Source: a virus
Strand: one strand, 5' to 3'
DNA length: 37,481 nt
Virus record (IMG/VR): IMGVR_UViG_3300045988_146796
Span: 1 to 37,481 of that record
This document shows positions 1-35,744 of this stretch, in pieces (the first letter of the stretch is position 1; each line of letters begins with the position of its first letter). Made by a program: the position numbers and the translations under genes. The notes beneath the pieces were generated by a model. The model searched no databases and was not told the origin of the DNA. It was given only the letters and a program-made list of their open reading frames with translations.

Positions 1-141
1 GTCGGCGGAGGTCGAGAAGATGAACGAGCGCGAGGGCATCTACAACGGCGCGCGCACGATGACGCCGCTCGTCCCCGGCGACACGCACAGAGACGGCACG
101 AAGAAGAAAACGAGCCACGTGCGCAACATCACGTTCGAGAA
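1..141. repeat. Terminal direct repeat copy 1, identical to 37341-37481
   Basis: I compared the two ends base by base: gtcggcggaggtcgagaagatgaacgagcg...cgttcgagaa occurs at both. The repeat lies inside the portal coding sequence. Confidence 0.95.
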
Positions 142-4811: not shown

Positions 4812-5189
4812 GTGACACCGAGAAAGGTGATCCAGCGTGTGGACGAGGCGAAGCCGAACGCCTTCCCCGAGGAAGCAAAGTTTGAGTGGCTCATGGCGCT
4901 TGAGGGCAGGATCGCGGCGGACGTGCTGCTGGCGACGCCGGAGGAGCTGGAAAGGATCATGCGCCGCGGCTTTGCAGACGGCATGGACGAGGAGCTGCTC
5001 GTGAAAGCGCCGCACGACGAGCTCTATGCGCTGTATCTGAAAGCATACATCGACAAGGAGAACGGCGAATACAACCGCTACGCGGATTCAAGCCAGCTCT
5101 ACAACGAGGCCTACGGCAACTTCGTGCGCTACTGGGGCAGAACATACGAGCCGGCGCAGGGCTATGAAAGGGGGTACGAGATCCGATGA
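4812..5189 (+). CDS. Head completion or head-tail adaptor candidate (function assigned by position only)
   Basis: GTG 4812 follows GAAGGGAGAGAGG. The upstream part of track ORF 4605.. overlaps the capsid gene and the hairpin. The 125-aa product lies between the capsid and fibre genes, and its stop overlaps the next start. Confidence 0.35.
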   Translation: MTPRKVIQRVDEAKPNAFPEEAKFEWLMALEGRIAADVLLATPEELERIMRRGFADGMDEELLVKAPHDELYALYLKAYIDKENGEYNRYADSSQLYNEAYGNFVRYWGRTYEPAQGYERGYEIR

Positions 5190-7051
5190 GAACGATCGAG
5201 GTGAAGGAGCTCGCCTATCTGCCGCTGGGCAGGCAGGGCGAGAACAAAGCGCAGAGGATCGTCTGGCCGGGGATCGCGGATTCGTGGGCGCGGCTGTACG
5301 GCGCGGGCGTATTCGCGCTGACGGTGAAGCGGCAGGGCGACGCCATGCCGTACCCCGCGAGCATCACGAGCGAGAACGGCGACGTCATCTGGGTACTCGG
5401 CAGCGCCGACACCGCGCGAGCGGGCGAGGGACTGGCCGAGCTTACTTACACGGTGGACGGCGTGGTCGCCAAGAGCAGAACGTGGCGGACGGTGACGGAG
5501 CCGTCGCTGAGCGCGGACGGGACGACCGAACCGCCGCCTGCGTACAAAAACTGGGTGGACGAGGTGCTCAAGGCCGGGGCGAGCGCGGAGACGGCGGTAT
5601 CGAAGATGCCCTACGTGGACGAGACCACGGGCAACTGGTTCAAGTGGGACGCCACAGCGGGCGCCTTTACCGACACAGGCGTTGCCGCGACCGGCCCGAA
5701 GGGAGATACCGGCCCCAAGGGAGACAAGGGCGAGCAGGGCAAGCGCGGCGTGCAGGGTGAGCGCGGCCCCGTCGGCGCGACCGGCGCGACCGGTGCGCGC
5801 GGCGAGACCGGCCCAAAGGGAGATACCGGCGCAGCTGGTCCCCGAGGGGAGAAGGGAGAAAAAGGCGAGAAGGGAGATCCCTTCACCTATTCGGACTTCA
5901 CGCCTGCACAGCTTGAAGGATTGCGCGGCGAACAAGGCCCCGTCGGCCCCAAGGGAGAGACAGGCGCAACGGGTGCAACCGGCGCGCGCGGTGAGACCGG
6001 CAAGGGCCTCACGGTGCTGAGCTACTACGAGAGCAAGGACGCGCTGGACGCGGCGAAGAAGGCGACGGCAAAGGCGGGCGATGCCTACGGCGTCGGCGCG
6101 GCACAGCCGTATGACATTCACATTTTCGACGGCGAGACCGGCGAATTCATCAACAACGGCCCCTTGCAGGGAGCGAAGGGCGAGACCGGCGAGCGCGGTC
6201 CGCAGGGCATTCAGGGCCCGAAGGGAGACCCCGGCAAGGACGGCGCAAAGGGTGCGGACGGCCTGCCTGGAAAAGACGGCGCAGACGGTGCGCCGGGTAA
6301 GGACGGGACAAACGGACGCGACGGCGTGACGTTTACGCCGAGTATGAGCGCGGCGGGCGATCTCTCGTGGACGAACGACGGCGGCAAGGCGAATCCTGAG
6401 ACCGTGAATCTCAAAGGCCCGAAGGGAGACACGGGCGCGAAAGGCGACCCCGGGGAGAAGGGCGATCCCGGCGAGAAGGGCGCGGACGGCGCTCCCGGCA
6501 AGGACGGAGCCAAGGGAGACAAGGGAGACACAGGCGCGCAGGGCCCACAGGGACTCAAAGGCGACACCGGCGAGCGCGGCCCGCAGGGCTTGCGCGGTCC
6601 GCAAGGCCAAAAGGGCGACACCGGACTGCAAGGCCCGATTGGCCCGCAGGGGCCGAAGGGCGACAAAGGCGACACCGGCCCGGCAGGCCCCGTCAACGTC
6701 CCCGCCACCACCTCTCTCATCAAGGGCAATGGCTCGGGCGGACTGGCCGCGGCGACGGCGGGCACGGACTATGCGCTGCGACCGACCACGCGCAAGGTGA
6801 CGCTGACCGCATCGGGGTGGAACAGCAGCACCAAGCAGCAGACGGTAACGTGCAGCGGCGTGCTCTCGGACGCGACAAAGCAGCTGCTGATCCCCACGCC
6901 CGCGAACACTGCGGCGGGCAATCCCTACGACGAGGCGAGCATTCAGATGGTCGCGCAGGGCGCGAACAGCGTGACGTTCTACGCCGACACCGTGCCGACG
7001 GTGAGCATCGACGTCTATGTGACGATCTACCCCATCAACTATCTCGGGTGA
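5186..7051 (+). CDS. Collagen-like tail fibre protein
   Basis: The 621-aa protein carries four blocks of Gly-X-Y triplets (for example [16 protein letters not shown]...). It has a globular BppU-like N-terminal domain and a beta-rich C-terminal domain. Confidence 0.8.
5693..6694 (+). repeat. Collagen-like GXY coding repeats in four blocks (5693-5881, 5918-6007, 6170-6325, 6416-6694)
   Basis: I read the triplet periodicity directly from the translation. The blocks contain 21, 10, about 17 and 31 GXY units. Confidence 0.9.
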
Positions 7052-8645: not shown

Positions 8646-8663
8646 AACGTGGAGAGGGAGCGA

Positions 8664-8966
8664 ATGGCAGATACAAAGCATTATGACGATGCGTCGATTG
8701 CACTGATTGATGCGCGGTGCAAGAGCAACACGCACCGAATCAACGAGCTGACAGAGCATCAGGTCGCGCTTGATCGGCTTGTAACCTCGGTTGAGGTGCT
8801 GGCCACAAAGCAGGAGACCGTGGAGGGCGATGTCAAGGAGATCAAAGAGGACGTCAAGCTCATCACTGGCAAGGCGGGGAAACGGTGGGACAGCATCGTG
8901 GACAAGCTGCTCGCCGTGCTCGCGGGGGCGTTCCTCGCGTGGCTGATCTCGGGAGGCATGGCATGA
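8664..8966 (+). CDS. xhlA: XhlA-like lysis-associated membrane protein
   Basis: It has an N-terminal coiled coil and a single C-terminal TM segment (LLAVLAGAFLAWLISGG). It is the first gene of a holin-amidase cassette, as in the PBSX xhlA-xhlB-xlyA arrangement. Confidence 0.55.
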   Translation: MADTKHYDDASIALIDARCKSNTHRINELTEHQVALDRLVTSVEVLATKQETVEGDVKEIKEDVKLITGKAGKRWDSIVDKLLAVLAGAFLAWLISGGMA

Positions 8967-9187
8967 AAGCGCTGAAAGCCCGCTGGGACAAGATGAAAAA
9001 GCGGGACAAGTACATATCCATCGCCATTTTCAGCCTGACATGGTACACCGTCGCCTCGCTCACCATGACGGCGCTCGGCGTGCCGCCGCCCGACGTGCTG
9101 ACGGAACGCTGGTTCAAGGCGTGGACAACAGAGCTCGTTGTGGTGGCGGGCATCAAGATTTTCAGAAAGGACGAAACGACACTATGA
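8963..9187 (+). CDS. Putative holin (74 aa, two hydrophobic segments)
   Basis: Its start overlaps the upstream stop as ATGA. The hydrophobic segments are ISIAIFSLTWYTVASLTMTAL and ELVVVAGIKIF. It lies upstream of the amidase. Confidence 0.5.
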   Translation: MKALKARWDKMKKRDKYISIAIFSLTWYTVASLTMTALGVPPPDVLTERWFKAWTTELVVVAGIKIFRKDETTL

Positions 9188-9381
9188 ATAACGAATTATT
9201 GAACAAGAGATTTGCGAACCTTTTGAGCGTAAAGTCGCTCGTGACGATTGCGCTGACGGCGACCTTCTGCGCGCTGACAGTACAGTCGAAGGTGACGCAG
9301 GAATTCAACACCGTGTACCTCATGGTCATTGCCTTCTACTTCGGCACGCAGAACGCGGCGGGCAGCGCGAAGGGAGAGTGA
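9184..9381 (+). CDS. Putative holin (65 aa, two TM segments)
   Basis: Its start overlaps the upstream stop as ATGA. The TM segments are LVTIALTATFCALTV and VYLMVIAFYFG. It lies immediately upstream of the amidase. Confidence 0.55.
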   Translation: MNNELLNKRFANLLSVKSLVTIALTATFCALTVQSKVTQEFNTVYLMVIAFYFGTQNAAGSAKGE

Positions 9382-10031
9382 GCGGTGTGAATATCCGCAA
9401 ATACCCGGCAAACGCCGGGAACGTCGGCGGCAAGCGCACGGCGAGCGGCATTCGCTACATCGTGATCCACTACACCGGCAACGACGGCGACACGGCGATG
9501 AACAACGCCAAGTACTACGCGGGCAGCGTGGTGAAGACCAGTGCGCACTACTTCGTCGATGCAAACGAGATCATCCAGAGCGTGGACGACCTGCGCATCG
9601 CGTGGGCGGTGGGCGGAAAGAAGTACCCGAGCTGCCCCCAGACGGGCGGCGGGACGCTGCACGGCCGCTGCCTGAACGCAAACAGCATCAGCATCGAGCT
9701 GTGCGACGCGAAGAAGGACGGCGCATACGCGCCGGACGCGCGCACCGTGGAGCGGGCACTTGCGCTGACGCGCGAGCTGATGAAGAAGTACAACATTCCG
9801 AATAGCAACGTCATTCGCCACTTCGATGTGACAGGCAAGCTGTGCCCTGCCTACTGGTCGGGCAAGGGCAGCGCGGGCAAGTGGGAAAGTGAGTTCCACG
9901 GGAAACTCGCAGAGCCGGACTACCGCGAAATGCTCAAGAAGCGCGCGGGACTCGAAGAGCGAACGATGGACTACCTCGCGGCCTACCAGTACGGCGGCGA
10001 CCTGATCCGAAAGCTCGCAACGATGAAGTAA
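9378..10031 (+). CDS. Endolysin: N-acetylmuramoyl-L-alanine amidase (Amidase_2/PGRP type)
   Basis: The motifs IVIHYTGN, AHYFVD, SISIELC and IRHFDVTGKLCP are typical of zinc amidases of the T7 lysozyme/PGRP family. The start is GTG 9378 (GTGA overlap) or GTG 9387. Confidence 0.85.
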   Translation: MSGVNIRKYPANAGNVGGKRTASGIRYIVIHYTGNDGDTAMNNAKYYAGSVVKTSAHYFVDANEIIQSVDDLRIAWAVGGKKYPSCPQTGGGTLHGRCLNANSISIELCDAKKDGAYAPDARTVERALALTRELMKKYNIPNSNVIRHFDVTGKLCPAYWSGKGSAGKWESEFHGKLAEPDYREMLKKRAGLEERTMDYLAAYQYGGDLIRKLATMK

Positions 10032-10091: not shown

Positions 10092-11519
10092 ATGCCTTCC
10101 AACTGGCTATACATCGACACGAACTTCCCGTCGTTCACGCAGAAAGAGAGCGACGGCGAGAAGATCGAGACGATGCAGGACTATCTCTTCATGCTCGTCG
10201 AGCAGCTGCGCTACACGCTGCGGAATCTCGACCTGAAGAACATGAACAAGGCGGCGATGAACGGATTTTTGCAGAATATCCGCGAGCCGATCTATGCCAA
10301 GATCGAGGACACGAACAAAAACGTAAACGAGCTGAGCATCACGGCAAAGGGACTGAGCGCGCGCATCAGCAATGCTGAGGGGAACATCACACAGCTCAGC
10401 GCGCGGGCAGACGGGCTTGCCGTCGAGATCCGCAATGCCAAGGGAGATATTACATCGCTCGGCGCACGGGCGGACGGCCTTGCGGCCGAAATCAAAAACG
10501 CCAAGGGCGACATCACCCAGCTCGGCGCGAGAGCAGACGGACTTGCCGCGCGGATCAGCAGCGCCGAGGGGAACATTACGCAGCTTGGCGCGACGGCGAA
10601 CGGGCTGAGCGCGCGCATCAGCAGCAACGAGGGCAGTATCACGAACCTGACGGCGGACGTAAACGGCATTCGCACGCAGGTGAGCGGGAAAATCAACAGC
10701 TCGGAGGCGCAGACACTCATCAACCAGAGCCTTGACGGGATCACGCTCTCGGCAACGAGCGGAGAGAGCGGGACGATCTTCAAGCTCATGTACGACGGCG
10801 CGGTGCTGGCAAGCACCGGCTCGGTCAACCTCTATGTAGACGCAGTGAACGTGTACGGCACGCTGACGGCGGAACGCCTGCAAGGCGGTTCGATCCGCAT
10901 TCTGGACGACGAGGGGAACAGATGCGGAACCATCTATTCAACCTACGCAAGCTCGGCAGACACGAAGATCGAGATCGACTCGGACGCGATCGAGCTCGGC
11001 GGCGACGACGGCAGTGTGTTCATTGGCTCTCGATGGGATCGGAGCACAAGGGGGTACTATGCCTCTATCGAGGTGGACGGATACTCGCAGGAGGTGCAGA
11101 TCAAGGGCGACGTCATTCCGAACGCGGACGCGACCTACAGCCTTGGCAGCCGGAATTTCGTGTGGGACGCGATCTATTGCAGCACGGACACGCTGAACGG
11201 CTCGGACCGGAACATCAAGAACAGCATCGAGGCGCTGCCGGAGAAGTACGTGAGCATGTTCGACCTCGTAGAACCAAGGCGCTACAAGCTCAACAGCGGC
11301 ACGAGCGGGCGCTTTCACACCGGATTCATCGCGCAGGAGGTAGAGGACGCCATGCGCGCATGCGGCATTGACTCGCAGGAATTCGCGGGCTGGGCCGCTG
11401 CCAAACGCGAGGACGGCAGCGAAACGTATTTCCTGCGGTACAGTGAATTCATTCCGATCCTGTGGGCGAAGGTGCGCGAGCAGGAAAAACGGCTAAAACG
11501 ATTGGAGGGAACGACATGA
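10092..11519 (+). CDS. Tail fibre or spike protein with a C-terminal intramolecular chaperone (Peptidase_S74) domain
   Basis: The C-terminus ...GSDRNIKNSIEAL...HTGFIAQEVEDA...LRYSEFIPILWAKVREQEKRL matches the S74 autoproteolytic chaperone signature. The shaft contains 21-aa tandem repeats. Confidence 0.8.
   Translation: MPSNWLYIDTNFPSFTQKESDGEKIETMQDYLFMLVEQLRYTLRNLDLKNMNKAAMNGFLQNIREPIYAKIEDTNKNVNELSITAKGLSARISNAEGNITQLSARADGLAVEIRNAKGDITSLGARADGLAAEIKNAKGDITQLGARADGLAARISSAEGNITQLGATANGLSARISSNEGSITNLTADVNGIRTQVSGKINSSEAQTLINQSLDGITLSATSGESGTIFKLMYDGAVLASTGSVNLYVDAVNVYGTLTAERLQGGSIRILDDEGNRCGTIYSTYASSADTKIEIDSDAIELGGDDGSVFIGSRWDRSTRGYYASIEVDGYSQEVQIKGDVIPNADATYSLGSRNFVWDAIYCSTDTLNGSDRNIKNSIEALPEKYVSMFDLVEPRRYKLNSGTSGRFHTGFIAQEVEDAMRACGIDSQEFAGWAAAKREDGSETYFLRYSEFIPILWAKVREQEKRLKRLEGTT
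10332..10682 (+). repeat. About 5.5 tandem 63-nt (21-aa) coding repeats in the fibre shaft
   Basis: The repeat unit L(S/G)ARADGLAxEIxNAKGDITQ was read directly from the translation. Confidence 0.85.
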
Positions 11520-11725
11520 ATGAGAAGATCAAGCAGGAAGCGGCGCATGCAATGCAGCTCATCAGCATGCTGAACGTGAGCGGCGACGGCGTGGACGTGG
11601 TGGCGGCGGCGCGGCAGGCGCTGCGCAACATCATGGCCATCTGCGACGCGACGGAGCCGCCGGTGGGAGAGAAGGGCGACGCGCCGGAGGAAGCGAAAGG
11701 AGCGGCCAAAAATGAGACTGCCTGA
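11516..11725 (+). CDS. Hypothetical small protein, 69 aa
   Basis: Its start overlaps the fibre stop as ATGA, with GGAGGGA upstream. Confidence 0.5.
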   Translation: MNEKIKQEAAHAMQLISMLNVSGDGVDVVAAARQALRNIMAICDATEPPVGEKGDAPEEAKGAAKNETA

Positions 11726-13364
11726 AACACCGTATGCCGACGGCATCGGCAAGCGCGGGCAGCTGCAATTCTACGGCCTTGACCACAATCTCGGCGCGGC
11801 GGACGGCGGGCTGTGGGACATGCGCAACCTGACGAGCGACTACTATCCGCTGCTGGCGACGCGGCCAAAGAGAAGGACGGTGCGCAAGCTCACGAGCGGC
11901 GGCGGGCTTTTCGCCTGGGACGCGCTCGCATGGGTGGACGGAACGGGCTTCTACTACGGCGGCGAGAAGAAGGGGACGGTGACGGCGGGAGAGAAACGCT
12001 TTGCCGCCATCGGTGCCTACATCATCGTTCTGCCGGACAAGAAGTACTACAACACCGTTTCGGGCGCGTTCGGCAGCTTAGAGAGCACGTGGAGCGGGCG
12101 GAGCCTGACCTTTACGAACGGGAAGCTCTTTGAAGAGGCGGCGGAGGCGAACACGATCCGCTGCGCGAACGTCAGGTGGGCGGACTACTTCAAGCCCGGC
12201 GACGCGGTGACGATCTCAGGCTGCACGAAACACCCGGAGAACAACAAAACGCCCGTCATCCGCGAGATCGACGGGGACAAGATGTACTTCTACGAAAACG
12301 TCTTCAAGCTGGACGGCAGCGAGGGAACGACGGAATACACCGAGAGCGGAAACTTGACGGTTCGACGCACGGTGCCGGATCTAAACTATCTATGCGAGAA
12401 CGAAAACCGGCTGTGGGGCTGCGACGGCCGGACGATCTACGCGAGCAAGCTCGGCGACCCGTTCAACTGGAACGTATACGAGGGGCTGGACACCGACAGC
12501 TACGCCGTGGACACGGGAAGCGCGGGGGACTTCACGGGCTGCGTGAGCTTCCTCGGCTATCCGGTGTTCTTCAAGGAGGATCACATCTACAAGGTGTACG
12601 GCAGCCTGCCGTCGAACTTTGAGGTGATGGGCAGCGCGACGCTCGGCGTGCAGAAGGGCAGCGGCGGGAGCCTCGCCATCGCGGGCGAGCGGCTGCTGTA
12701 TCTCTCGTCCTCGGGCGTGATGATCTACTCCGGCGGCATTCCGCAGAGCCTGCACGACGCCTTCGGGCAGACGCGGCTCAAGAACGGGCGCGCGGGCAGC
12801 GACGGCCTCAAATACTACCTGAGCGCGCAGGACGAGAGCGGGACATGGAAGCTCTACGTCTACGACACGCGAAAGGGCATGTGGCACATCGAGGACGAGA
12901 CGCACGCGACACACTTCTGCCGGCACGAGGGAAACACCTATTTCCTGACGGCCGGGGGCGAGATCGAGATGACGGGCAACATTCTGGACGCGCCGGAGGG
13001 GAGCGAAAACGAGGACGACTTCACCTGGTACGCCGAGACCGGCGACTTCACGGAGAAGGGGACGAGCCGCGCGACAAGCTACGACAGCGTGAAGAAGGGC
13101 ATTGCCAAGATCGAAATCCGCATCGAGGTGGCGGCGGGAGCGGAAGCGAAGGTGCTGCTGCAATTCGATTCGGACGGGAAGTGGGTGCAGGCCGGGCAGA
13201 CGCTGCGCGCGGAGAAGAAACGCAGCTACTACCTGCCCATCATTCCGCGGCGCGCGGATCACTACCGCATTCGCATCGAGGGCAAGGGCGAGTGCCGCGT
13301 CTATTCGATGACGCGCGAATACTACGCGGGCAGCGAGCTCAAATCGACAAGAGGCCCGCAGTAA
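11712..13364 (+). CDS. Virion or tail structural protein, 550 aa (possibly nozzle or hub-like)
   Basis: This large beta-rich ORF lies in the tail module. The function is assigned by position only. Confidence 0.35.
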   Translation: MRLPETPYADGIGKRGQLQFYGLDHNLGAADGGLWDMRNLTSDYYPLLATRPKRRTVRKLTSGGGLFAWDALAWVDGTGFYYGGEKKGTVTAGEKRFAAIGAYIIVLPDKKYYNTVSGAFGSLESTWSGRSLTFTNGKLFEEAAEANTIRCANVRWADYFKPGDAVTISGCTKHPENNKTPVIREIDGDKMYFYENVFKLDGSEGTTEYTESGNLTVRRTVPDLNYLCENENRLWGCDGRTIYASKLGDPFNWNVYEGLDTDSYAVDTGSAGDFTGCVSFLGYPVFFKEDHIYKVYGSLPSNFEVMGSATLGVQKGSGGSLAIAGERLLYLSSSGVMIYSGGIPQSLHDAFGQTRLKNGRAGSDGLKYYLSAQDESGTWKLYVYDTRKGMWHIEDETHATHFCRHEGNTYFLTAGGEIEMTGNILDAPEGSENEDDFTWYAETGDFTEKGTSRATSYDSVKKGIAKIEIRIEVAAGAEAKVLLQFDSDGKWVQAGQTLRAEKKRSYYLPIIPRRADHYRIRIEGKGECRVYSMTREYYAGSELKSTRGPQ

Positions 13365-13385: not shown

Positions 13386-14744
13386 ATGGCTTACACCTAC
13401 GACGACTTTGAAAAGGCGAGAGCGGGCAGCGACGTATACTTTTCGCAGTACGACCTTGACCTTGCAAAACAGCACCCGGAATTCGGCATGAGCGTGCTGG
13501 ATCTCAAAAAGCAGTACGCGACCGCGCAGACGCCGGAGCAGCGCGCGCTCATCAACGCGCAGGCAAACGAGCTGCGCAAGAACTACGGCTACTATTCCGG
13601 CGGATCGGACGGCAGCAGCTACATCAGCACCGGCAAGTACGCGCCGAAGATCGACGAGACGCTCGACAAGATCGGCTCGTTCAAGCCGTTTGAGTACGGC
13701 AGCGCGCCGAGCTACGAAAACCGCTTCCAGCAGAAGCAGCAGGAGCTTTTGGACGCGGCGCTCAATCGAGATCCGTTCTCGTGGAGCAAGGAGACGGATC
13801 CGCAGTACAGCAGCTACAAAAAGACGTACCTGCGCGAGGGCGAGCGGGCGACGGCGGACGCGCTGGCGAAAGCAAGCACCGCGAGCGGCGGGCGGCCGAG
13901 CTCGTTCGCCGTGAACGCGGCGACGCAGGCGGGCGACTACTACGCGACGAAGCTCTCTGACGTGATCCCGACGCTCTATCAGCAGGCATACGAGCGGTAT
14001 CTCAAGGACTACCAGATGAAGCTGAGCGACCTGAACGCGGTGAACCAGCAGGAGCAGCTGGACTACGCGAAGTATCTCGACCGGCTGAACCAGTTCAACA
14101 CCGACAGAACCTTCGACTACAACAACTATCTCGGCGAGTACGGCCGCTTGCAGGACTACCTCGGCGGTTTGCAGGGGCAGGATCAGACGACATACAACCG
14201 CTATCTCGACGTGCTCGACCGCGAGCGGGAGAAGCAGCAGGCTGCGCAGGAGCTGAGCCGCGCCCAGATCGACGCGATGCTGCAAGTAGGCGTTTCGCCG
14301 AGCGCGGGGCTCATCGGCAAGAGCGGCTACGAAAACGAGTACATTCAGGCGCTCGAGAACTACTACAAGCAGCAGTCGGCAGCGAAGGCGGGCGGCGGAA
14401 GAGGATCCGGCGGCGGGGGCGGCAAGCCAAAGAGCAAAATGAACCTGACGACCGCGCAGAAGATGGCAAAGGCCGGACAGTTCACGCAGGAGGTGCTCGA
14501 CACGCTGCACGCGGGAGGATTCAACGACGCCTATCTCGCGTCGGTGTACGGCTATACCGGCGGCGGCAGCGGGCGCACGAAGTTCGGCTACGATTCGGAC
14601 GAGGGCATTTTCACGTGGAACGGGTACCGCTTCAATTCGCCGGAGGCATTTGCGGAAGCGCTGGATCGCGCGGCGCTGACGGACGCGGAAAAGGCCGAGA
14701 TTTCCAGAAAGCTGAGAGCCAACGGATTCAACATCACGTTCTGA
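13386..14744 (+). CDS. Virion-associated protein, 452 aa, Q/N/Y-rich with a Gly-rich linker
   Basis: It has a good RBS (AGGAGGAAGGAGA) and lies between the structural genes and the giant virion protein. Confidence 0.35.
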   Translation: MAYTYDDFEKARAGSDVYFSQYDLDLAKQHPEFGMSVLDLKKQYATAQTPEQRALINAQANELRKNYGYYSGGSDGSSYISTGKYAPKIDETLDKIGSFKPFEYGSAPSYENRFQQKQQELLDAALNRDPFSWSKETDPQYSSYKKTYLREGERATADALAKASTASGGRPSSFAVNAATQAGDYYATKLSDVIPTLYQQAYERYLKDYQMKLSDLNAVNQQEQLDYAKYLDRLNQFNTDRTFDYNNYLGEYGRLQDYLGGLQGQDQTTYNRYLDVLDREREKQQAAQELSRAQIDAMLQVGVSPSAGLIGKSGYENEYIQALENYYKQQSAAKAGGGRGSGGGGGKPKSKMNLTTAQKMAKAGQFTQEVLDTLHAGGFNDAYLASVYGYTGGGSGRTKFGYDSDEGIFTWNGYRFNSPEAFAEALDRAALTDAEKAEISRKLRANGFNITF

Positions 14745-14756
14745 TGAGGTGACGAC

Positions 14757-17700
14757 ATGGCAATTAAAATCACGCAGATCAAGCCCGAGGGCGCGCAGAA
14801 AAGCGCGCCCTCGGCAAAAGACTATTTTGAAGAAAAGCCGAGAGGAGAGAATACCGAATACACCGGGCGCATCAAGATCACGAAGATTCCGAGCGCGGAG
14901 ACACCGTATCAGAGAGCTTTGGACGAGGCAATTTTGAGAGCATCGGCGGCGGGGCAGACGCAGCTGCCCCCGGGCAGCAAAAAGCCGGGAGCACCGATGA
15001 GACAGTCGGAATATCAAAAAGCGCTGGACGAGGCGATGATGAAACGCGCGGCGGCGGATCGGAAGAACCGGGAGCGGGGGCGCAGGAGCTACAACCGCTC
15101 GCACGCGCAGGAAGTGCGCGAGATCACCGGCGACAGGACGAAAAAGAGCATTACCCCCATCATCAAGAGCGCGGCGGCGGGCTATGCGGCGGATATGGTC
15201 GGCGCGGCAGACACGCTGCTGCGCGCGCCGAGCGGACTGAACTACGCGGCGAGTCAGGAGCGCGGAGAGATCGAAGCCTCGAAAAAGAACATCGCCGCCT
15301 ATACCGAAAAGCTCAAGGCGGCGAAGACGGAGGAGGAACGCCAGCAGTGGCAGACGCTGATCGACCGCAACAAGCGCCTCATCGAGATCAACAGCAAGGC
15401 TGCGGACGAGCGGGTGAAAAACTATCAGGACGCAACGAGGGGCGCGCAGGAGAAGCTGCAAGGCACCTATCAGAAGCTGCGCAAGACCGCGTCCGACAAC
15501 ATGGAAAAGGCAAACGAAGGGCTCACGCCGGTCGGCAAGTACCTCAACAACGTCGGCGTGGCGGGCGCGCAGATGGCCGCAGACGCGGCACTCGGCGGCG
15601 GCAGCGCGCTCGGCCCGATGTTCCTGCGCGTATTCGGCGGAAACTCGCAGGAGGCGGCGGAAGCGGCGGACAAGCCCGGCATGAGCGCGGCGGAACAGCT
15701 GGACGCACAGAACCGGGCACTGCTGTACGGCACGGCGAGCGGCGCGGTGAGCATCGCGACGGAGAAGATCAGCAACGTTGCAGCCCCGTTCAAGAAAGCG
15801 TTCGGCGGCGGCTTCCTCGACAAGGCCATCGACGGCGCGATCGCCAAGATGAACGGAAACGCGGCGGGGCGGCTCGCCCTGTCGTTCCTGTCCGAGGGCG
15901 GCGAGGAAGTTATTGAGGACATCGTGCAGCCAGCCTTGCAGACGATCTACAACGGGCAGAGCGCCGGACAGAATTACAGCGAGCTTGACGCGGCGGAGAT
16001 TCTGAACGACTTCCTCGTCGGCGGCGCGCTCGGTCTGATCGGCAGCGGCGTGGAAGGCATTCACAATGCGGACGCGCGGCTTGCCGCCGAGCGGGCGGCA
16101 GGGGAAGCGGCAGCGCCGACAGCCGAGCAGCAGAATACCATGCCCGCACAGCCTGCGGCGGCGCAGGAGGGCGCGCAGGGCGTGGGCGAGGGTAATTTAG
16201 CACCCGTACCGCAGAGCGCCGCACAGGGCGCGCAGGAGGCGAGCACAAGCGTTGACACGAACCCGAAGAACCACACGCCGGAAGAACAGAAGCGCGTGGA
16301 GGATTATCGGGCGGCAACGGATTCCGGCATCGTTGCATTTGTTCAGAAGGTGAGAACGCTGAAAAACCCGCGGTATAGAAATTCGGTAAGATACCCGGTA
16401 TCAGACGTTTCCGCGCGGGAAGCATCAGCAGTACTGGACGCAACCGGAGTGAACACAAGTGGTTTCACGAATATCCTGACCGGCGGAGCAGTTGACCATA
16501 TCGAGAAAAGGCACGGCGCAAGCGGCAAGGCAGACAAGAGTATGCAGGATCTGAACGACCTCGGGCGAGTCGGCTACATTCTCGAAAACTTCGATGGTGC
16601 AGAATTGCTCCTGAATGAAGATGGAACGCCGTCCGTGAGCGACGTATGGAAAAACAGCGACGGGACGCCTGCGGCAAGAATGCTTTTTACAAAAAAAGTA
16701 GACGGTGTATATTACACCGCCGTAGCAACGCCGGACAGCAATGCGGGAGTCATTGCCATCGAAAGCGCATTTATGAGCAAAGAAAAAGGAAGCACCGGCA
16801 CAGTCCTGAACATGGAGAATATCTCCCCGCAGGTTACGCCCGAAGCGCCACAGCGCGCTAATGCTTCCTTCGATAACACTGTACCACAGGAAAGCGGCGG
16901 CGTCAAGGCGCAGGAGGGCACAGAAAGCGCGCAGACGGCGCAAGCAGACAACACAACGACCGCAGGAGGAATGAACCATGGAGGACAAGAAGTACAGAAC
17001 CATGCCGGAGGGGCTGAGTTTGCCGACACTGCCAAAAGAGGCACGCCGGAAGCAGCCGACGCAGCGAGTGCATTACCTGATGGAGCTGCCGAACGGGGAG
17101 AGCGTGAGCGTGGCGGAAGAGAATCTGGACGCATTCCTCGAGAAGTACGGAACGTCGGCGGAGAAGACGGAAACGCGCTGACGGTACAACAGCGGCTTGC
17201 GGCATCCGGTATCTCACAATTCATCAGCCCACGGGAGGCCAACGTGCCGAACGGCGCAAGCGGCGATAACACCGTCACCATCTTTGACGAGGTGGACTGG
17301 GACCAGGAGCTTATCGGCGCGGCGGACTGGGCAAAGTCAAAGGGCGTGAAGAAGGTAACGGCGCTGCTCGGTGTCATCAACATTGAAAAGAACGGAAGGA
17401 CCGGAAAGGCTTTCGGTGTATTCAATGCAGACACGGGCGAAATTTTCGTCAATGCCGGATCAGTGCAGCGCAGTGTGAGCGAGACGATCGAGCATGAAAC
17501 GGCGCATTACCTGGCCGAAGTGGCGAGGCGCGAGAACGTCAGGACGTTTATGCGCGACGTTCAGAGCCGGTACAGCAGTGAAGAGTGGGGCAAGGCGTAC
17601 GATGCCTACTTTGACCGCTATGCAGCGCTGACGGGCGACTATGTGGGAATGAGCGAGAACGATATCGAGCTCTATGTGTGGGAAGAGATCATGGGCGATG

Positions 17701-20700
17701 CCTATGCCGAGATCGACCAGTATGATGAGAAGGCGAGCCGATTCAACCGCGAGGCTGAAAACGCGCTGTCGCAGAGCGCGCCGGAAGCGCCGGCGCACAC
17801 CGTCAGCGAGCCGGAGAACGTGCGTCTGCGTGCGGTGGACGAGCCGAAGGGCAGAGGGCCGCCGGAGAGATTTTCCCTGAACGAGTTTGAAGACGGCAGG
17901 CGGTTTGTGGATGTGCAGGCAGACCAAGCTCAGTTTGATGGGTTGAACGACAAGCAAAAAACAAAGCTGGCAATTCAAATTATCAAAGAGAGATTTTCGG
18001 GTAAAGTTATCGGTATTGACAACCGTGTGTTTGTCAACGGCAGAAGCGCGGCGGAATACGGACACCCCACAAAAAACATTTCTCCCGATATTCGAGACGC
18101 TAAAATGAGAGCGTCTACAGAACTGGATAACCTGATTGACGCCGGCACGAATTTCAGAACAGAGCCGGACGGAAAAGATGGGCACATTCATCATAACACA
18201 GCCGGGGATTTCCGCTATTTCGATACAACATTCAAAGTTGGGAATGAGTATTATAAGGGCGTTGTCAATATTTTGCCGGTTTCAAAAGGACTCCTTTTGA
18301 AAGATATTACAAAAATAGAAAGCATCACACAGGACATCAGTAGCTCATACGGGCAAAGCCCGAAGTCTACATTCCTGCGTGATGCTTCTATGAGCAGTAT
18401 ATCCAGAAACGGCGGAAATGTCAAGTACAGCGCGTTCAACGAGGAAGTGGCGCGGCAGCTGGCGGGTGAGGAACAGGAAAAACAGCGGTACAGCGCAGAG
18501 AGCGACGAGTTCTACGAACGCCTCGACGAAGAGCTTGCCGATGAAAAAGAGATCGACAGGCAGGAACGAGCCTATGAAAAGGCAGAGCGCGATGGAATGC
18601 GCACAGACTTCCCGTCGATCTCCGCGGAATGGAAGACAAAGCTCGAACGCGCGCGGGCGGCGGCAACGAACAACATCAAGCCGTCCGGCTTCGACAGCTA
18701 CGACGCTTACCTCGACGCGCTGGACAAGCAGCACGCGGCAGATCGCGCTGAGCGGCTGCGCGTCAAGAGCAGGGACGAGTTCAAAGGCACGAAGGCGCTC
18801 GACGAGCTGGGCGTGAAGATCGCAAACAGTGCGGGTATCTACCACAACGCAGAACAGCTCCTTGCCAACGACAAGGCGGCGAAGAGCATTCAGAAGGCAA
18901 CCAAGCGCGCCGAGCAGCGCCTGGGCGCAACGCGGCAGGAAAAGCGCATCGCGCGCGACATCGCAAACGGCGAGCGATCGATGGCCGATATTCCTCGCAG
19001 CGTGAAGAAATCGCGCGTGCTTGAGCTCGTAGACTATTACACGGCGCAGAAGGCAACAAAGACGGGGCTTTTGCAGCAGCAGCGCATTGAGATCAACGAC
19101 GCGCTGCGTGAGCAGGCGCGCGAGCTCATCGGCACGGAAGCCCCGGAGATCAATCGAAAGGGCTTGAGTAAGCTCTTCGACCCGAGTAAAGGCCTTGTGC
19201 TTTACCACCGCACGCCGCAGCGTATTATGCGCGCTCTCTTCGGCTGGAAGCAGGGGCAGAAGATCAACGAGGCCGTCTTTGAGCCGGTCTACGAGAACGA
19301 GCAGGAACGCAAGCGCTTCATCAACCGCTTGTTTGACGAGGTGCGAACCTTTGAAGGCGCGGACGGCAAGAAAAGCGCACTGAACAAGGACGAGAGCGCT
19401 TTCGCCCAAAAGCTGAAAGAGGGGCGTACCGTCGAAGAGCTGGTCGAAAAGTCCGGCGTGGCAGAGAGTATCAGAGCGGCGGCGGAAAACCTCAAGAACG
19501 GCGCAGAAATGAAAGACGCGGCGCGTGAGTTCAATCTTGACGAAGGATCCCGCAACCTGACGCGGCAATATGCCGACTGGCTGCAAACGCAGGAAGACTA
19601 TGCGGCGGCGGAGAATATCGACCGAATGAAGATCGAGAACGCGATCGAGAAGTATACCGAGCTCTACGATAAGCTCTATGCTGCGATCAACGACTTCCTT
19701 GTGGCGCACGGCTATGAGCCGATCGGCTTCATCAAGGGATATGCCCCGCACTTCCAGCCGGAGGCGGAGAGCAGCAAGCTCGAAAGCGCGCTCAAGGCCA
19801 TCGGCGTTGACCTCGGTTCCGGCGTGGGCAAGCTGCCGACAAGCATTGCAGGATTGACTAAATCCTTCAAGCCAAACAAGCGGTACAATCCGTTCTTCCA
19901 GCACCGCAGAGGCAATGAGACGGACTACGATATCGTCAAGGGCTTTGAGACATACGTGGACTACGCGAGCGATGTGCTGTATCACACGGACGACATCATG
20001 CGCGTGCGTCAGATGGCAAACTACCTGAGGTCGACATTCGCGCCGGAAGAGATGAAAGCAGATATCGACCAGATGGAGGCCATGCGCTACGCGCCGGCAG
20101 ACGTGAAGGAAGAATACTTACGAGATAAAAAGAAGATCGCAGACGACACCTTCTTGAGCTATGAAGATCTGACTGCCATGATGGAGCAATACACGGACGA
20201 GAAGTATCGCACAATGGAGGACGTTACAGAATTCAGCGATCTCGTCACATGGCTGGACGACTATGCGAACAAGCTCGCGGGCAAGCAGCTCTTTGAAGAC
20301 CGCCTGATGGAGCGCGAGGTCGGGCGCGAAGCGCTGAACGGCGCGAAGAAGCTCAACCGCATGTTCGCCCGCGCGAACGTTGCGGGCAACCTCTCATCGG
20401 CACTGAACCAGACGGCGCAGCTGCCAATGATCGCAACTGAGCTTGGGCAGAAAAACACATGGCGCGCCGTGGGTGATATCCTGCGATGGAAGACGACCGG
20501 CATGAGCGCATTCCGTGGGGAGAGCGACTTCCTGACGGAAAAGAGCGGCATCGACTATATCCAGAGCACCAAGGGAGAAAAGGCGCTGAAAGTGCTGTTC
20601 AGCCCACTGGAAAAGGTCGATACGCTCGTCAGCACGATCGCTGTGCGCGGAAAGTATCGCATGGAGCTGGACGCCGGAAAGAGCCCGAAAGAGGCGATGA

Positions 20701-21854
20701 AAGCGGCGGATCGTTGGGCGCGCGACATCATGGGTACACGCTCGAAGGGATCGGTGCCGCTGACGTTCCAATCGAAAAACCTCATCGCGCAGATGATGAA
20801 CATGTTTCAGGTCGAGGCGGCAAACACCTTCGAGCACGTCACGCAGGACAGGCTCGGCCCGGGATTCAAGGAAATGGCCGCAAAGATCGGCAAGGACAAG
20901 GCCATCAAAAAGCTTGCGAGCGACGCCATCGCCTACATGCTGCTTGCATTCCTGCTCAACCGGCTGGACGAAGAGCTGTACGGCGGAACACCGGCGCCCT
21001 TTGATGTCCTCGGCATGGGGCTGAATGCCGTAGCCTCCGGAAACGGTCTGACATCGAGCGACCTGCTCAAGACGATCATGGACAATGTGACCGAGAGCTT
21101 CTTCGGCGAGCGGCTCTTCGACACAGACCCGGACGCTATGAACGACGAGTTTGACGGCTGGGCGGCGGCAGAGGACACCTTGTACAACATCAGCAACGAT
21201 GTGCCGTATGTGCGCAACGTCTCCGGCCTGCTCGGCGTGGGAGACCAGACACTGCCGATGCCCGACATCGTCGGTGCACTGAGCAAAGGGAAAAAGGCGC
21301 TGAAAAATGCCGACAGTCCGGGCGAATTCTGGGCGGAGATCGCGCGGCAGCTCATGGGCCTTGCGGGAGACACGCTGCCGGGCGGCCGACAGGCCGAGAA
21401 AACCGCGCAGGGAATTGAAGCCGTTGCACGCGGCGGATCCTACAAGGGGAGCGGCGACAGCAAGCGGCTGCAATACCCGGTGGAGTCGCCGCTGGAAGAT
21501 CCGTGGACGGCGCTGCGGGCAGCCATCTTCGGCAAGAACGCGCTGCCGGAATCTCGCACATACTGGGCGGCGGGCGGCAAGGCGCTGAGCGCGGCGCAGA
21601 CGAGACTCTACGAAGATCTCGTGGACAGCGGCCTGAGCCGGAAGCGGGCATACGAGATCCTCAAGCGCTTCAACGACGCGACGGCGGATCTGGAAGCCGA
21701 CCGGGACAAGAACGGGAACCCCATCGGCGGGAGCAAGAAGGAAAAGATCGTCAAGGAGATCAATAAGCTGCCGCTGAGCCGGAAGCAGAAAAACATGCTC
21801 TATCTCAGCAGGGGATACAGCGAGAAGGATCTGAACGGCTTGCCGTGGAACTGA
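14757..21854 (+). CDS. Giant polyvalent virion or ejection protein, 2365 aa
   Basis: It is a single uninterrupted ORF. It contains a DHIEKRHG motif (16494-16517) in a PBECR/barnase-EndoU-like module and an HETAH zincin motif (17493-17507). It also has Gly/Ala-rich tape-measure-like N-terminal segments and a long helical C-terminal half. Confidence 0.6.
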   Translation: MAIKITQIKPEGAQKSAPSAKDYFEEKPRGENTEYTGRIKITKIPSAETPYQRALDEAILRASAAGQTQLPPGSKKPGAPMRQSEYQKALDEAMMKRAAADRKNRERGRRSYNRSHAQEVREITGDRTKKSITPIIKSAAAGYAADMVGAADTLLRAPSGLNYAASQERGEIEASKKNIAAYTEKLKAAKTEEERQQWQTLIDRNKRLIEINSKAADERVKNYQDATRGAQEKLQGTYQKLRKTASDNMEKANEGLTPVGKYLNNVGVAGAQMAADAALGGGSALGPMFLRVFGGNSQEAAEAADKPGMSAAEQLDAQNRALLYGTASGAVSIATEKISNVAAPFKKAFGGGFLDKAIDGAIAKMNGNAAGRLALSFLSEGGEEVIEDIVQPALQTIYNGQSAGQNYSELDAAEILNDFLVGGALGLIGSGVEGIHNADARLAAERAAGEAAAPTAEQQNTMPAQPAAAQEGAQGVGEGNLAPVPQSAAQGAQEASTSVDTNPKNHTPEEQKRVEDYRAATDSGIVAFVQKVRTLKNPRYRNSVRYPVSDVSAREASAVLDATGVNTSGFTNILTGGAVDHIEKRHGASGKADKSMQDLNDLGRVGYILENFDGAELLLNEDGTPSVSDVWKNSDGTPAARMLFTKKVDGVYYTAVATPDSNAGVIAIESAFMSKEKGSTGTVLNMENISPQVTPEAPQRANASFDNTVPQESGGVKAQEGTESAQTAQADNTTTAGGMNHGGQEVQNHAGGAEFADTAKRGTPEAADAASALPDGAAERGERERGGRESGRIPREVRNVGGEDGNALTVQQRLAASGISQFISPREANVPNGASGDNTVTIFDEVDWDQELIGAADWAKSKGVKKVTALLGVINIEKNGRTGKAFGVFNADTGEIFVNAGSVQRSVSETIEHETAHYLAEVARRENVRTFMRDVQSRYSSEEWGKAYDAYFDRYAALTGDYVGMSENDIELYVWEEIMGDAYAEIDQYDEKASRFNREAENALSQSAPEAPAHTVSEPENVRLRAVDEPKGRGPPERFSLNEFEDGRRFVDVQADQAQFDGLNDKQKTKLAIQIIKERFSGKVIGIDNRVFVNGRSAAEYGHPTKNISPDIRDAKMRASTELDNLIDAGTNFRTEPDGKDGHIHHNTAGDFRYFDTTFKVGNEYYKGVVNILPVSKGLLLKDITKIESITQDISSSYGQSPKSTFLRDASMSSISRNGGNVKYSAFNEEVARQLAGEEQEKQRYSAESDEFYERLDEELADEKEIDRQERAYEKAERDGMRTDFPSISAEWKTKLERARAAATNNIKPSGFDSYDAYLDALDKQHAADRAERLRVKSRDEFKGTKALDELGVKIANSAGIYHNAEQLLANDKAAKSIQKATKRAEQRLGATRQEKRIARDIANGERSMADIPRSVKKSRVLELVDYYTAQKATKTGLLQQQRIEINDALREQARELIGTEAPEINRKGLSKLFDPSKGLVLYHRTPQRIMRALFGWKQGQKINEAVFEPVYENEQERKRFINRLFDEVRTFEGADGKKSALNKDESAFAQKLKEGRTVEELVEKSGVAESIRAAAENLKNGAEMKDAAREFNLDEGSRNLTRQYADWLQTQEDYAAAENIDRMKIENAIEKYTELYDKLYAAINDFLVAHGYEPIGFIKGYAPHFQPEAESSKLESALKAIGVDLGSGVGKLPTSIAGLTKSFKPNKRYNPFFQHRRGNETDYDIVKGFETYVDYASDVLYHTDDIMRVRQMANYLRSTFAPEEMKADIDQMEAMRYAPADVKEEYLRDKKKIADDTFLSYEDLTAMMEQYTDEKYRTMEDVTEFSDLVTWLDDYANKLAGKQLFEDRLMEREVGREALNGAKKLNRMFARANVAGNLSSALNQTAQLPMIATELGQKNTWRAVGDILRWKTTGMSAFRGESDFLTEKSGIDYIQSTKGEKALKVLFSPLEKVDTLVSTIAVRGKYRMELDAGKSPKEAMKAADRWARDIMGTRSKGSVPLTFQSKNLIAQMMNMFQVEAANTFEHVTQDRLGPGFKEMAAKIGKDKAIKKLASDAIAYMLLAFLLNRLDEELYGGTPAPFDVLGMGLNAVASGNGLTSSDLLKTIMDNVTESFFGERLFDTDPDAMNDEFDGWAAAEDTLYNISNDVPYVRNVSGLLGVGDQTLPMPDIVGALSKGKKALKNADSPGEFWAEIARQLMGLAGDTLPGGRQAEKTAQGIEAVARGGSYKGSGDSKRLQYPVESPLEDPWTALRAAIFGKNALPESRTYWAAGGKALSAAQTRLYEDLVDSGLSRKRAYEILKRFNDATADLEADRDKNGNPIGGSKKEKIVKEINKLPLSRKQKNMLYLSRGYSEKDLNGLPWN

Positions 21855-22592: not shown

Positions 22593-22618
22593 CCGACTAT
22601 TCAAAGGAGGAAACTGCC

Positions 22619-23545: not shown

Positions 23546-25042
23546 CTAAAGGACGAGGCGGTAGTGGACGGTCAGGGTGTTGGCGGCTTTGTTCCATGTG
23601 ATATTTTCGGCAACGCTGCGGACGGCGGCGTTCTTTTCGGCGACGGTGGCGTCGGACGATTGCAGCGTCTTTACCACGGCGCGGAGAGCGGAGCGCAGCA
23701 GCTTCGGATCGGCGGCAGCCTTATCCTCTTTCTGCATGGCGGCGATCTGCGCGTCGAGATCGGCGATGCGCTGCTGCACGGCGGCCTTGCTCGCCTTGTA
23801 CTCTTCCACGGTATCGGCGCCGGTGAGATAGGCGTCGCGCAGGCGGTCGAGCATACGGGCAGCGGAATCGCGGGACGCTTCCAGCGCGGCCATGGCGGAC
23901 ACGCCATTGTCGCCGGAGCGAACCACCTCGAACTCGGGAGAGGAGCCGCGCGCGGCGTCCTCACGGAAACGGGAAAGCAGCGCGTCCTCCAAAACGTCGC
24001 GCCGGATCGACTGCCGAACAAGGCAGGAGCCGTGAATATAATTTTTACACACCAGATACTCGGGTGTATTCACGACGAGGGAGCCGCCGCAGGCGGCGCA
24101 ATGGACGAGGCCGGAAACCCAATGCTTTTGCGTCCAGGACTGGCGGGAATACTTCGGGTAGAGCAGCTTCTGCTCGTCGATACGGCGCTGGACGGCAGAG
24201 AAGGTCTCTTCGTCGATCAGAGGGACGTGCTTGCCGTCGGAGAGGACAACGTTTTCGTTCGCATAGTCGCGGCGGGTGCGACCGGTCGGGTTCCAGCGGA
24301 GTTTGCCGATGTAGACGGGGTTGCGCAGGATATACTCAACGGTACGGTTCTCAAACTTGCCGCCGCGGTGCGTGCGCTGCCCGCAGCTGTTCAGCCAACG
24401 GGCAAGGGGGAAGAAACCTTCGCCCGCGAGATAGCGGCGGAAGATCTCCCTCACATAGTCGTCCTCGGGCGGCTTCGGCACGTACACATGATCCTTGAGA
24501 CCGTAGCCATACGGCGGAGCGCACTGCACCTCGCCGCGACGGTGCTTCTCTTCCATACCACGCTTGACTTCCTGGGCGAGGTTGATGCTGTAGTATTCGT
24601 CCATCGCCTCGATGAGCGCCTCGGTGATGAGGCCCATGCCGCCCTCGGCCACCGGCTCGGAGATCGAGATGACATCAATGCCGAGCTGCTTGCGCAGGAT
24701 CGACTTATACATGACCGCATCGTCGCGGTTGCGGGCGAAACGGGAGAACTTCCAGAGCAGGATCGCGTCGAAGGGCTTGGGCTTTGACTTCGCGACGCCG
24801 ATCATGCGGCGGAATTCGTCGCGCTTTTTCACGCCGCGGCCGGAAATGCCCTCGTCCATGAAAACAAATTCATCCGGCACGATATAGCCATTGCGCGCGG
24901 CCCATTTGCGGATCTCGACGAGCTGCGAGGCGGGGGAGAGCTCCACCTGCTCATCGGTAGAGACGCGGATATAAGCCGCGGCGATGCGAAGATCAGGCAG
25001 CGGCGCGGGGACGGGAGAAGTAAAGCCTTTCGGCGGGGTCAT
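23546..25042 (-). CDS. int: Large serine recombinase (integrase)
   Basis: It contains AAYIRVSTDEQ with the catalytic Ser, a resolvase-type N-domain, and a recombinase domain. A zinc ribbon (CAACGGSL...CKNYIHGSC) and a C-terminal coiled coil are also present. The product is 498 aa. Confidence 0.9.
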   Translation of the reverse strand: MTPPKGFTSPVPAPLPDLRIAAAYIRVSTDEQVELSPASQLVEIRKWAARNGYIVPDEFVFMDEGISGRGVKKRDEFRRMIGVAKSKPKPFDAILLWKFSRFARNRDDAVMYKSILRKQLGIDVISISEPVAEGGMGLITEALIEAMDEYYSINLAQEVKRGMEEKHRRGEVQCAPPYGYGLKDHVYVPKPPEDDYVREIFRRYLAGEGFFPLARWLNSCGQRTHRGGKFENRTVEYILRNPVYIGKLRWNPTGRTRRDYANENVVLSDGKHVPLIDEETFSAVQRRIDEQKLLYPKYSRQSWTQKHWVSGLVHCAACGGSLVVNTPEYLVCKNYIHGSCLVRQSIRRDVLEDALLSRFREDAARGSSPEFEVVRSGDNGVSAMAALEASRDSAARMLDRLRDAYLTGADTVEEYKASKAAVQQRIADLDAQIAAMQKEDKAAADPKLLRSALRAVVKTLQSSDATVAEKNAAVRSVAENITWNKAANTLTVHYRLVL

Positions 25043-35192: not shown

Positions 35193-35744
35193 ATGGCGCG
35201 GCAGAAGAAATACGGCACAGCGAAGGCACTCGAAAGAGCGTGCGAGCGCTATTTCGCGTCGATCACGCGGCGGGTGAAGGTGACGGAGCTGGTCGACTCC
35301 GGCGAGCGGGACGACAAGGGACACGTCATCATGCTGCCGGTGCCTGTGGAAAACAGCCTCGGCGAAGAGCTATACACGATCGAATACCTGCTGCCGCCGA
35401 GCATGCACGAGCTGTACGCCGCGCTCGGCATCGACAAATCGACGTGGAGCCGGTACATGGCCGAGGGCGAGGACTATGCGCGCGTGGGCGCGTGGGTCTA
35501 CGAGCGCATGAAGGCATGGAACGAGCACGAGATGCTGACGCGCGAGGGGAAGAACCTCAAGGGCATTCTCTTCAACCTGACGAACAACTACGGATACAGC
35601 GAGAAGAAGGAAGTGGAGCTCGGCGAGCGGGCGACGAAGACGGTGACGGCGGCGAGCATTCCGCTCGAGGACCGGCAGGAGATGCTGCGCGAGCTGATGC
35701 AGGAGTTTGAGCGCGATGAGCGGGAAGACGGAAGCGAGCCTTGA
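35193..35744 (+). CDS. terS: Terminase small subunit
   Basis: ATG 35193 follows AAGAGGTGAGG. The protein has an HTH-like PPSMHELYAALGIDKSTWSRY, the motif ILFNLTNNYGYSEK and an acidic C-terminus. It overlaps terL. Confidence 0.7.
   Translation: MARQKKYGTAKALERACERYFASITRRVKVTELVDSGERDDKGHVIMLPVPVENSLGEELYTIEYLLPPSMHELYAALGIDKSTWSRYMAEGEDYARVGAWVYERMKAWNEHEMLTREGKNLKGILFNLTNNYGYSEKKEVELGERATKTVTAASIPLEDRQEMLRELMQEFERDEREDGSEP

Follow-up and report, generated by a model that had tools for sequence, protein, structure and literature searches.

The gene considered here, at positions 14757..21854 (+ strand) of IMG/VR virus record IMGVR_UViG_3300045988_146796 (the window, 37,481 nucleotides [nt] in all), encodes a product of 2365 amino acids (aa), below called the giant protein. 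It probably belongs to the polyvalent proteins described by Iyer et al. (2017), with a three-part scaffold and two slots for effector domains, and probably injected into the host along with the phage DNA. The class and its injection model were defined by Iyer, Burroughs, Anand, de Souza, and Aravind (2017; PMC5512222), and very similar open reading frames (ORFs) were remarked on in 2024 in Clostridium clostridioforme prophages; the giant protein is a further member. The gene, delimited from its ORF, its translation, and a homologue search, starts with ATG, with a Shine-Dalgarno-like GAGGTG 6 nt 5′ of the start and right after the stop codon of the upstream gene. It takes up 19% of a 37.3-kb genome and is the final gene of the rightward late (structural) operon, as an earlier note on this DNA had proposed. 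More than 2486 database proteins match the ORF, which therefore did not arise by chance. Taken whole, the protein has no match in PHROGs or NCBIfam, megablast against the phage records gave none, and neither the protein nor profiles A1 and A2 brought up a relevant sequence in the PDB.

The giant protein has the testable defining features of the polyvalent class. Several disparate activities are predicted within one chain (a PBECR3 ribonuclease [RNase], a zincin-like module, an LPD3-like domain, and two large unnamed modules). The phage gene lies beside packaging and virion genes (TerL, portal, capsid, fibre, and an internal-virion-protein homologue), and orthologues carry other hallmark domains of the class (ART-PolyVal, MuF_C, LPD23, LPD3, PBECR5, and SprT-like/DUF6782). 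The earlier note had read the protein as polyvalent, with PBECR-type, zincin, and further modules, from the letters alone; the features that it listed are all present at the positions it gave, its domain calls prove largely right, and its interpretation is supported. PBECR, LPD, and SprT-like families, whose absence would have spoken against it, occur in close and distant relatives.

When the 119 closest relatives were laid onto the giant protein, three conserved blocks (modules A, B, and C) and two variable slots emerged, with four cassette types in slot 1 (aa 496-742, window positions 16242..16982; this and all other features of the giant gene are on the + strand) and twelve in slot 2 (aa 1008-1243, 17778..18485, delimited by mapping of both DNA and protein). 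The cassettes of the relatives include PBECR5, ART-PolyVal, LPD3, and a combination of LPD23, a second zincin of SprT/DUF6782 type, and MuF_C. Relatives that are 95-96% identical as DNA differ only in the two slots, where identity drops sharply. In one of them, DNA identity is 95.5% from window position 10428 to aa 496, 94% over aa 743-1007, and 96.4% over the rest of the gene from aa 1244 on, whereas neither slot can be aligned. Another has the same slot 1 (96% identity), which leaves slot 2 as the sole difference. Because the breaks are limited to the slots in otherwise nearly identical phages, cassette exchange has been recent and confined to fixed places.

Slot 1 carries a PBECR3 domain (aa 555-676, 16419..16784), a predicted metal-independent endoRNase (Pfam; PMC5512222). 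With aa 501-750 scanned alone, the match to PBECR3 (Pfam PF18812) scores 35.8 bits (E 8e-9), above the cut-off of 30; in a scan of the whole protein it scores 29.9 bits, just below it. The PBECR-like motif picked out in the earlier note, LTGGAVDHIEKRHG at aa 574-587, includes H581, R585, and H586. Across 14 aligned PBECR3 cassettes H581 and H586 are invariant, G587, D613, and K646 vary little or not at all, and a Ser/Thr is retained at about aa 672; the cassette thus fits the His plus Ser/Thr configuration described for PBECR RNases (PMC5512222). The slot-1 domain is a predicted endoRNase with its active-site residues intact, presumably directed at RNA. The same cassette was detected in 13 of 148 distant representatives searched with jackhmmer, a sample used for the other modules as well.

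Module B (aa 743-1007, or to 1040 in the mapping of relatives; 16983..17777) was delimited by conservation, structural model, and motifs. It contains a putative zinc-binding and catalytic HExxH motif, HETAH (aa 913-917, 17493..17507), on a predicted helix, and an EEIMGDAYA stretch (aa 976-984, 17682..17708) that is a candidate helix for a third zinc ligand (Glu). HExxH is present in 200 of 204 module B sequences, and EE-x3-[AT][YAF]A in 173 of them, at a median of 63 aa past HExxH; the pair is kept across relatives with only 17-36% identity. In an AlphaFold model, with a predicted local distance difference test (pLDDT) score above 90 in the core, the chain runs from an initial helix through a five-strand sheet to the HExxH helix, after which come four more helices, a zincin-like topology. 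The zincin module of the earlier note thus holds up in its motif, which is conserved, and in its confident zincin-like model, but family and fold matches are weak: DUF6782 at E 0.065, DUF3810 at E 0.25, and, as top Foldseek matches, six anthrax lethal factor entries (E 0.08, probability 0.8). Iyer et al. tied their own metallopeptidase domain to the anthrax lethal factor fold (PMC5512222). Foldseek with module B plus slot 2 against the PDB gave nothing at E ≤ 1e-3, and a PDB profile search gave nothing relevant. Because these matches are weak, module B is called zincin-like here and assigned to no named family. It was found in 92 of the 148 distant representatives.

The domain in slot 2 starts at a GPPERFS junction motif (aa 1034-1040, 17856..17876) and continues as an LPD3-like alpha+beta domain (aa 1041-1198, 17877..18350), which is confidently predicted in the model. 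The earlier note had described a second beta-rich module here, and its FKVGNEYYKGVVNILPVSKG is at aa 1159 (FKVGNEYYKG at aa 1159). Scanned as a domain alone, the region matches LPD3 (Pfam PF18798) over aa 1066-1167 with E 0.004 and 17.7 bits, the cut-off being 27; P0300, a relative with 51% identity, reaches 34.3 bits over the same region, and 9 of 33 aligned members have an LPD3 match. To judge by these alignments, the second beta-rich module is probably a divergent LPD3 domain. An LPD3-type domain was found in 29 of the 148 distant representatives. A second BECR nuclease was considered for this slot, since the model has a helix followed by strands, and set aside, as the Pfam link is to LPD3 and not to PBECR; NTF2-like and cystatin-like Foldseek matches were weak and not significant, and are not relied on. 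A stand-alone relative of the domain, 277 aa long and 65% identical, is encoded on ENA metagenome contigs (L003/L004, 6001-6834) with an overlapping 333-aa gene upstream. The neighbours of this pair are housekeeping genes (birA, greA, rluD-type), and the pair is not in a prophage; the two contigs measure 277 and 468 kb.

Cassette ends share a recurring motif, s(I/V)xQ-x4-VK-x-K(F/Y)S. A small hidden Markov model built for it has 209 matches of at least 5 bits across 318 family proteins and no match once the sequences are shuffled. Among 138 non-redundant proteins, VK..(F/Y)S was observed 44 times (6.5 expected), with a majority of sites N-terminal to module C, and GPP-x1-6-(F/Y)S, the pattern to which GPPERFS belongs, 23 times (0.5 expected). 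In the giant protein the first linker motif follows the PBECR3 cassette (NASFDNTVPQESGGVKAQ, aa 702-719, 16860..16913; a weak match, 7.0 bits), and the second is DASMSSISRNGGNVKYSAF (aa 1209-1225, 18381..18437; 15.7 bits). At the junction of slot 2 and module C, KYSA and RYSA stand 22 aa apart, the second (K/R)YSA copy being at aa 1244-1247, the start of module C; one relative has a single copy. Three readings of these linkers are possible: joints where recombination takes place, zincin cleavage sites (the zincin then favouring an aromatic residue immediately after the scissile bond), or simply tails that are conserved among related cassettes. Together with the fixed-slot architecture and the unnamed C-terminal module, the linker motif goes beyond what was found described.

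That module, C (aa 1244-2365, 18486..21851; core shared across the family, aa ~1340-2310, nt 18774-21686), is the most conserved stretch of the protein, and is predicted to be nearly all helix (pLDDT 70.8, predicted template modelling score [pTM] 0.67), bearing out the conserved helical C-terminal half of the earlier note. Searched against 1.84 billion representative proteins, aa 1241-2365 matched 2539 clusters (formed at 50% identity) at E ≤ 1e-3, of which 1210 reached E ≤ 1e-30. The core occurs in proteins of 800 to 5671 aa, mostly near the C-terminus, and some of these contain little else (P0178, 1162 aa; P0240, 1270 aa). Thirty diverse members share many invariant polar residues, within motifs that include GFIKGYAPH (aa 1657), YHTDD (aa 1742), LAGKQ (aa 1840), NQTAQLP (aa 1884), FQVEA (aa 2017), GGTPAPFD (aa 2076), and PGGRQ (aa 2208). 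Hydrophobicity is highest in the helix at aa 2049-2071. An enzymatic assignment based on YHTDD and the other invariant polar motifs was tried and dropped, the all-helical model fitting no known polymerase or nuclease fold.

No Pfam family covers module C in the 30 members, and the module has no Pfam, PHROG, NCBIfam, or PDB match; Foldseek against the PDB found none at E ≤ 0.001 (best E 0.15). In BFVD it matches 41 predicted viral structures at E ≤ 1e-3, all of them C-terminal pieces of giant proteins from uncultured phages, and each named after its own cassette: LPD3, ART-PolyVal, nuclease, methylase, or helicase. The top match is an LPD3-named "Podoviridae sp." protein, and S0A015 from Cellulophaga phage phi19:3 is a structural relative in the same database. 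Module C is thus a common but unnamed part of phage polyvalent proteins. A tblastn search of plasmids with module C gave no match, and therefore no sign of a relative in conjugative elements. In many distant members (P0128-P0268), an additional 200-430 residues separate the module C core from a short, conserved tail at the C-terminus; this suggests a third variable slot, empty in this phage.

Module A (aa 1-495, 14757..16241), the Gly/Ala-rich N-terminal scaffold, is 81-97% identical in close relatives and was detected in 34 of the 148 distant representatives. Gly plus Ala make up 22-37% across the first 500 aa of the protein, much as the earlier note had it, and there are weakly hydrophobic Gly-rich segments at aa 277-295 and aa 410-428. 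The module has no Pfam, PHROG, or NCBIfam match, and the description "tape-measure-like" given to this end in the earlier note finds no support. The duplicated YQ(R/K)ALDEA(I/M) motif is present (14907..15038), as YQRALDEAI at aa 51-59 and YQKALDEAM at aa 86-94; in many relatives ~31-35 aa are missing at this repeat (offsets e.g., q72 = s41), consistent with a variable copy number.

The giant gene is preceded by two partner genes. The first (11712..13364, +; 550 aa) matches PHROG 511, "internal virion protein," at E 9e-82, and is found with the giant gene in close and distant phages; the second (13386..14744, +; 452 aa, without a family match) adjoins the giant gene on its 5′ side. In an uncultured phage whose giant protein is only 25% identical, a 550-aa gene and a ~450-aa partner also go with the giant gene. 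The same series of genes (amidase, fibre, genes of 69, 550, and ~460 aa, giant gene) is seen again in prophages from spore-forming Clostridia, a host assignment that we infer because CotJA/CotJB and SpoIVA genes flank one of these prophages. The giant gene is probably a gene of a gut Clostridia prophage. In the window it is followed by a lysogeny region with a large serine integrase (23546..25042, -). Nt 1-141 and nt 37341-37481 are a perfect 141-nt direct repeat at the two ends, and the window is therefore a circularly closed assembly of a complete phage genome of ~37,340 bp; the phage is a complete temperate phage. Scans of the neighbouring ORFs with Pfam, PHROGs, and NCBIfam found no family of tail tubes, sheaths, tape measures, or tail chaperones, which agrees with the earlier note, but is not proof that such genes are missing, since several small ORFs have no match of any kind.

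Several known systems can be compared. The polyvalent proteins of Iyer et al. likewise join many unrelated domains in one giant polypeptide, with a zincin-like metallopeptidase "hub," a PBECR RNase, and an LPD domain, encoded beside the virion genes of portal/terminase phages and with mosaic domains between orthologues (PMC5512222). Unlike them, the giant protein has a ~1000-aa helical module and a module A that match no Pfam family from that work, and its cassettes are in two fixed slots of an otherwise nearly identical scaffold.

There is also a likeness in overall setting to prophages phi1 and phi4 of C. clostridioforme LM41 (CP125626.1), in which a ~8-kb ORF at the 3′ end takes up ~20% of the genome, and for which podovirus-like particles and LPD3 similarity were reported (PMC11318856). 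These too are temperate phages of gut Clostridia, with genomes of ~41 kb, and are predicted podoviruses (PMC11318856). Their ORFs are similar to an LPD3-named "Podoviridae sp." protein, which is also the name of the top BFVD match of module C; homology with the giant protein is thus suggested by the descriptions, not by sequence comparison. That paper, unlike the present work, contains no domain or slot analysis (PMC11318856).

The virion RNA polymerase gp50 of phage N4 is also giant, packaged, and injected, and its C-terminal encapsidation region has a zincin-like HExxH domain (PMC5512222). The giant protein, unlike gp50, has no RNA polymerase domain (no polymerase family match). Comparison of modules B and C with gp50 aa 2101-3500 by hhalign, with a single template sequence, was not significant (E 0.059 around HExxH only, 0.55 for module C), and modules B and C as a counterpart of the gp50 encapsidation region were dropped as a candidate on that account.

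The E. coli phage PTXU04 encodes a 2198-aa putative polyvalent protein, gp25, that is required for infection (PMC11879866). Knock-down of gp25 strongly reduces plating, so such giant proteins can be essential (PMC11879866). The giant protein differs in having no detectable sequence similarity to it, the tblastn search of 50,697 phage records matching one uncultured contig only.

A virion role for the giant protein is suggested contextually, by its gene position, the conserved gene order, the short-tailed gene set, the LM41 prophage particles, and the analogy with PTXU04 gp25; the label "virion protein" in the earlier note still derives from gene order. As a polyvalent protein, it would be made late in infection and built into a podovirus-like particle as an internal or ejection protein, with both upstream gene products. 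At infection it would exit the capsid along with the DNA, the scaffold serving for both packaging and exit, and the cassettes would work in the new host in the first minutes, ahead of any phage gene expression. The zincin module may cut the chain at the conserved linkers, freeing the cassettes. A more far-reaching version, less likely than not, would make module C an undescribed and very widespread domain that short-tailed phages of Gram-positive gut bacteria need as the carrier for packaging and ejection in a natural "plug-in" delivery system, with cassettes swapped at fixed slots by linker recombination and freed after injection by the built-in zincin, cutting before the aromatic residue of (K/R)-(F/Y)-S.

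Several observations weigh against the polyvalent, injected-effector interpretation. The cultured phages of INPHARED include no sequence relative: the sole tblastn match in those 50,697 records is uncultured and 25% identical. The zincin call comes without a significant family or fold match, and the LPD3 score of the giant protein itself is under the Pfam cut-off. A temperate phage that injects an active RNase into a future lysogen needs a restricted target or a short-lived activity. The linker motifs may be merely conserved tails of homologous cassettes and not cleavage sites. Finally, the many invariant polar residues of module C leave room for a separate activity, in which case the module would be more than a passive carrier.

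The short-tailed phage T7 likewise has large helical proteins, gp14-gp15-gp16, whose genes stand side by side where its structural genes end; the largest of the three has an enzymatic domain. Taking this likeness further, the giant protein might be mainly an essential structural part of the DNA-ejection apparatus, like T7 gp16, with the cassettes secondary and the real function in module C, for example as a channel or motor-like conduit across the Gram-positive envelope. The position of the gene after an internal-virion-protein homologue, in a conserved order, would be expected on this account, as would the standing of module C as the most conserved and most widespread part (the 2539 clusters at 50% identity), the members that have little beyond it (P0178, P0240), and the requirement for PTXU04 gp25 in infection. 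Module C is all-helical with one moderately hydrophobic helix, but hydropathy reaches a maximum of just 1.49, with no segment at typical transmembrane values, and Foldseek against the PDB, as noted, has no match at E ≤ 0.001 (best E 0.15). Unlike the T7 proteins, the giant protein has no sequence or structural match to any PDB entry; the host here is Gram-positive, and the cassettes are nucleic-acid or protein effectors, not a transglycosylase. Conservation of their catalytic residues shows the cassettes to be under selection, which sits poorly with a secondary role. This account seems unlikely; it shifts emphasis only and is compatible with the polyvalent reading.

A second alternative, and an improbable one, is a phage-borne polymorphic toxin resembling MuF-fused toxins, disabling competing bacteria or co-infecting phages and not host defence. 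The cassettes of the giant protein are internal, whereas those of polymorphic toxins are C-terminal (a contrast drawn in PMC5512222), and there is no MuF head domain, even though the PBECR, ART, and MuF_C repertoire overlaps with the toxin domains of conflict systems. Rapid cassette turnover is typical of polymorphic toxins, and PTXU04 gp25 is toxic or interfering on expression; against this, no immunity-like gene follows the giant gene on the same strand (the next gene is convergent), and relatives have ToxN or other unrelated genes downstream of it.

Tape-measure proteins sometimes have peptidase or lysozyme domains, and the giant protein is very long and largely helical, with a Gly/Ala-rich N-terminus. 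A tape-measure protein of a long-tailed phage with embedded enzymatic domains is nevertheless a very remote prospect, since no tape-measure family matches in Pfam, PHROGs, or NCBIfam, and no library yielded an alignment to such a protein; genes for a tube, a sheath, or chaperones were not recognised upstream, nor distal-tail genes downstream, where the lysogeny region follows this last gene of the late operon; the portal is P22-like; and similar prophages are predicted podoviruses for which podovirus-like particles have been seen (PMC11318856). The giant protein thus qualifies neither as a tape-measure protein nor as a T7 core protein or an N4-type virion polymerase, and a polyvalent protein is still the reading preferred here.

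The remaining structural genes of the window were assigned by family matches: the large terminase, TerL (35707..37245), the P22-like portal (20..1942), the capsid protein (3737..4735), a collagen-repeat protein (5186..7051), and a tail fibre with an S74 chaperone domain (10092..11519). The collagen-repeat protein, 621 aa, with long Gly-X-Y repeats and encoded directly 3′ of the capsid gene, has many tail-fibre PHROG matches, through the repeats only, and could be a fibre or a head decoration. Lysis-type genes (window 8649-10031) lie inside the structural operon, between the head genes and the tail fibre: an XhlA/"hemolysin"-like ORF (8649..8966, PHROG 937), a small ORF (9040..9381, PHROG 13256), and an Amidase_2 endolysin (9378..10031, by family match). 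The same placement is seen in related prophages.

Other features of the window stand apart from the giant gene. Between it and the integrase, a 288-aa protein (window 22550-23416) has a dCTP-deaminase-like domain joined to an LptF/LptG-like membrane region. Related prophages have a ToxN toxin gene in its place, and 22550-23416 therefore resembles a variable site for defence or moron genes. Two copies of a 42-nt repeat (window 7463-7504 and 7770-7811, 90% identical) each take in the ribosome-binding site and opening codons (MIFNPVRSGG) of a small gene; the two genes are adjacent and look like tandem paralogues. For the first of them, translation probably begins at the ATG at 7474, not at the TTG at 7453. 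Two DNA methyltransferase genes are found in the early region (27545-29422, 625 aa; 30221-30934, 237 aa), and the phage probably also protects its own DNA by methylation. A 1224-aa ORF on the - strand (window 12390-16064), opposite three well-supported + strand genes, is most likely a by-product of the 59% G+C content and not a gene.

Polyvalent proteins are predicted to decide the first minutes of an infection, and almost none have been tested. The near-identical relatives that differ in the content of their slots amount to a natural set of cassette swaps on one scaffold, and this locus names the pieces to clone and the residues to mutate (H581, H586, and E914), along with a concrete prediction of cleavage sites. 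Module C merits definition as a family, since thousands of giant phage ORFs are now annotated by the small cassette they carry alone. Should the scaffold indeed bring cargo into cells, it could serve as a vehicle for proteins of choice, with gut Clostridia as the target.

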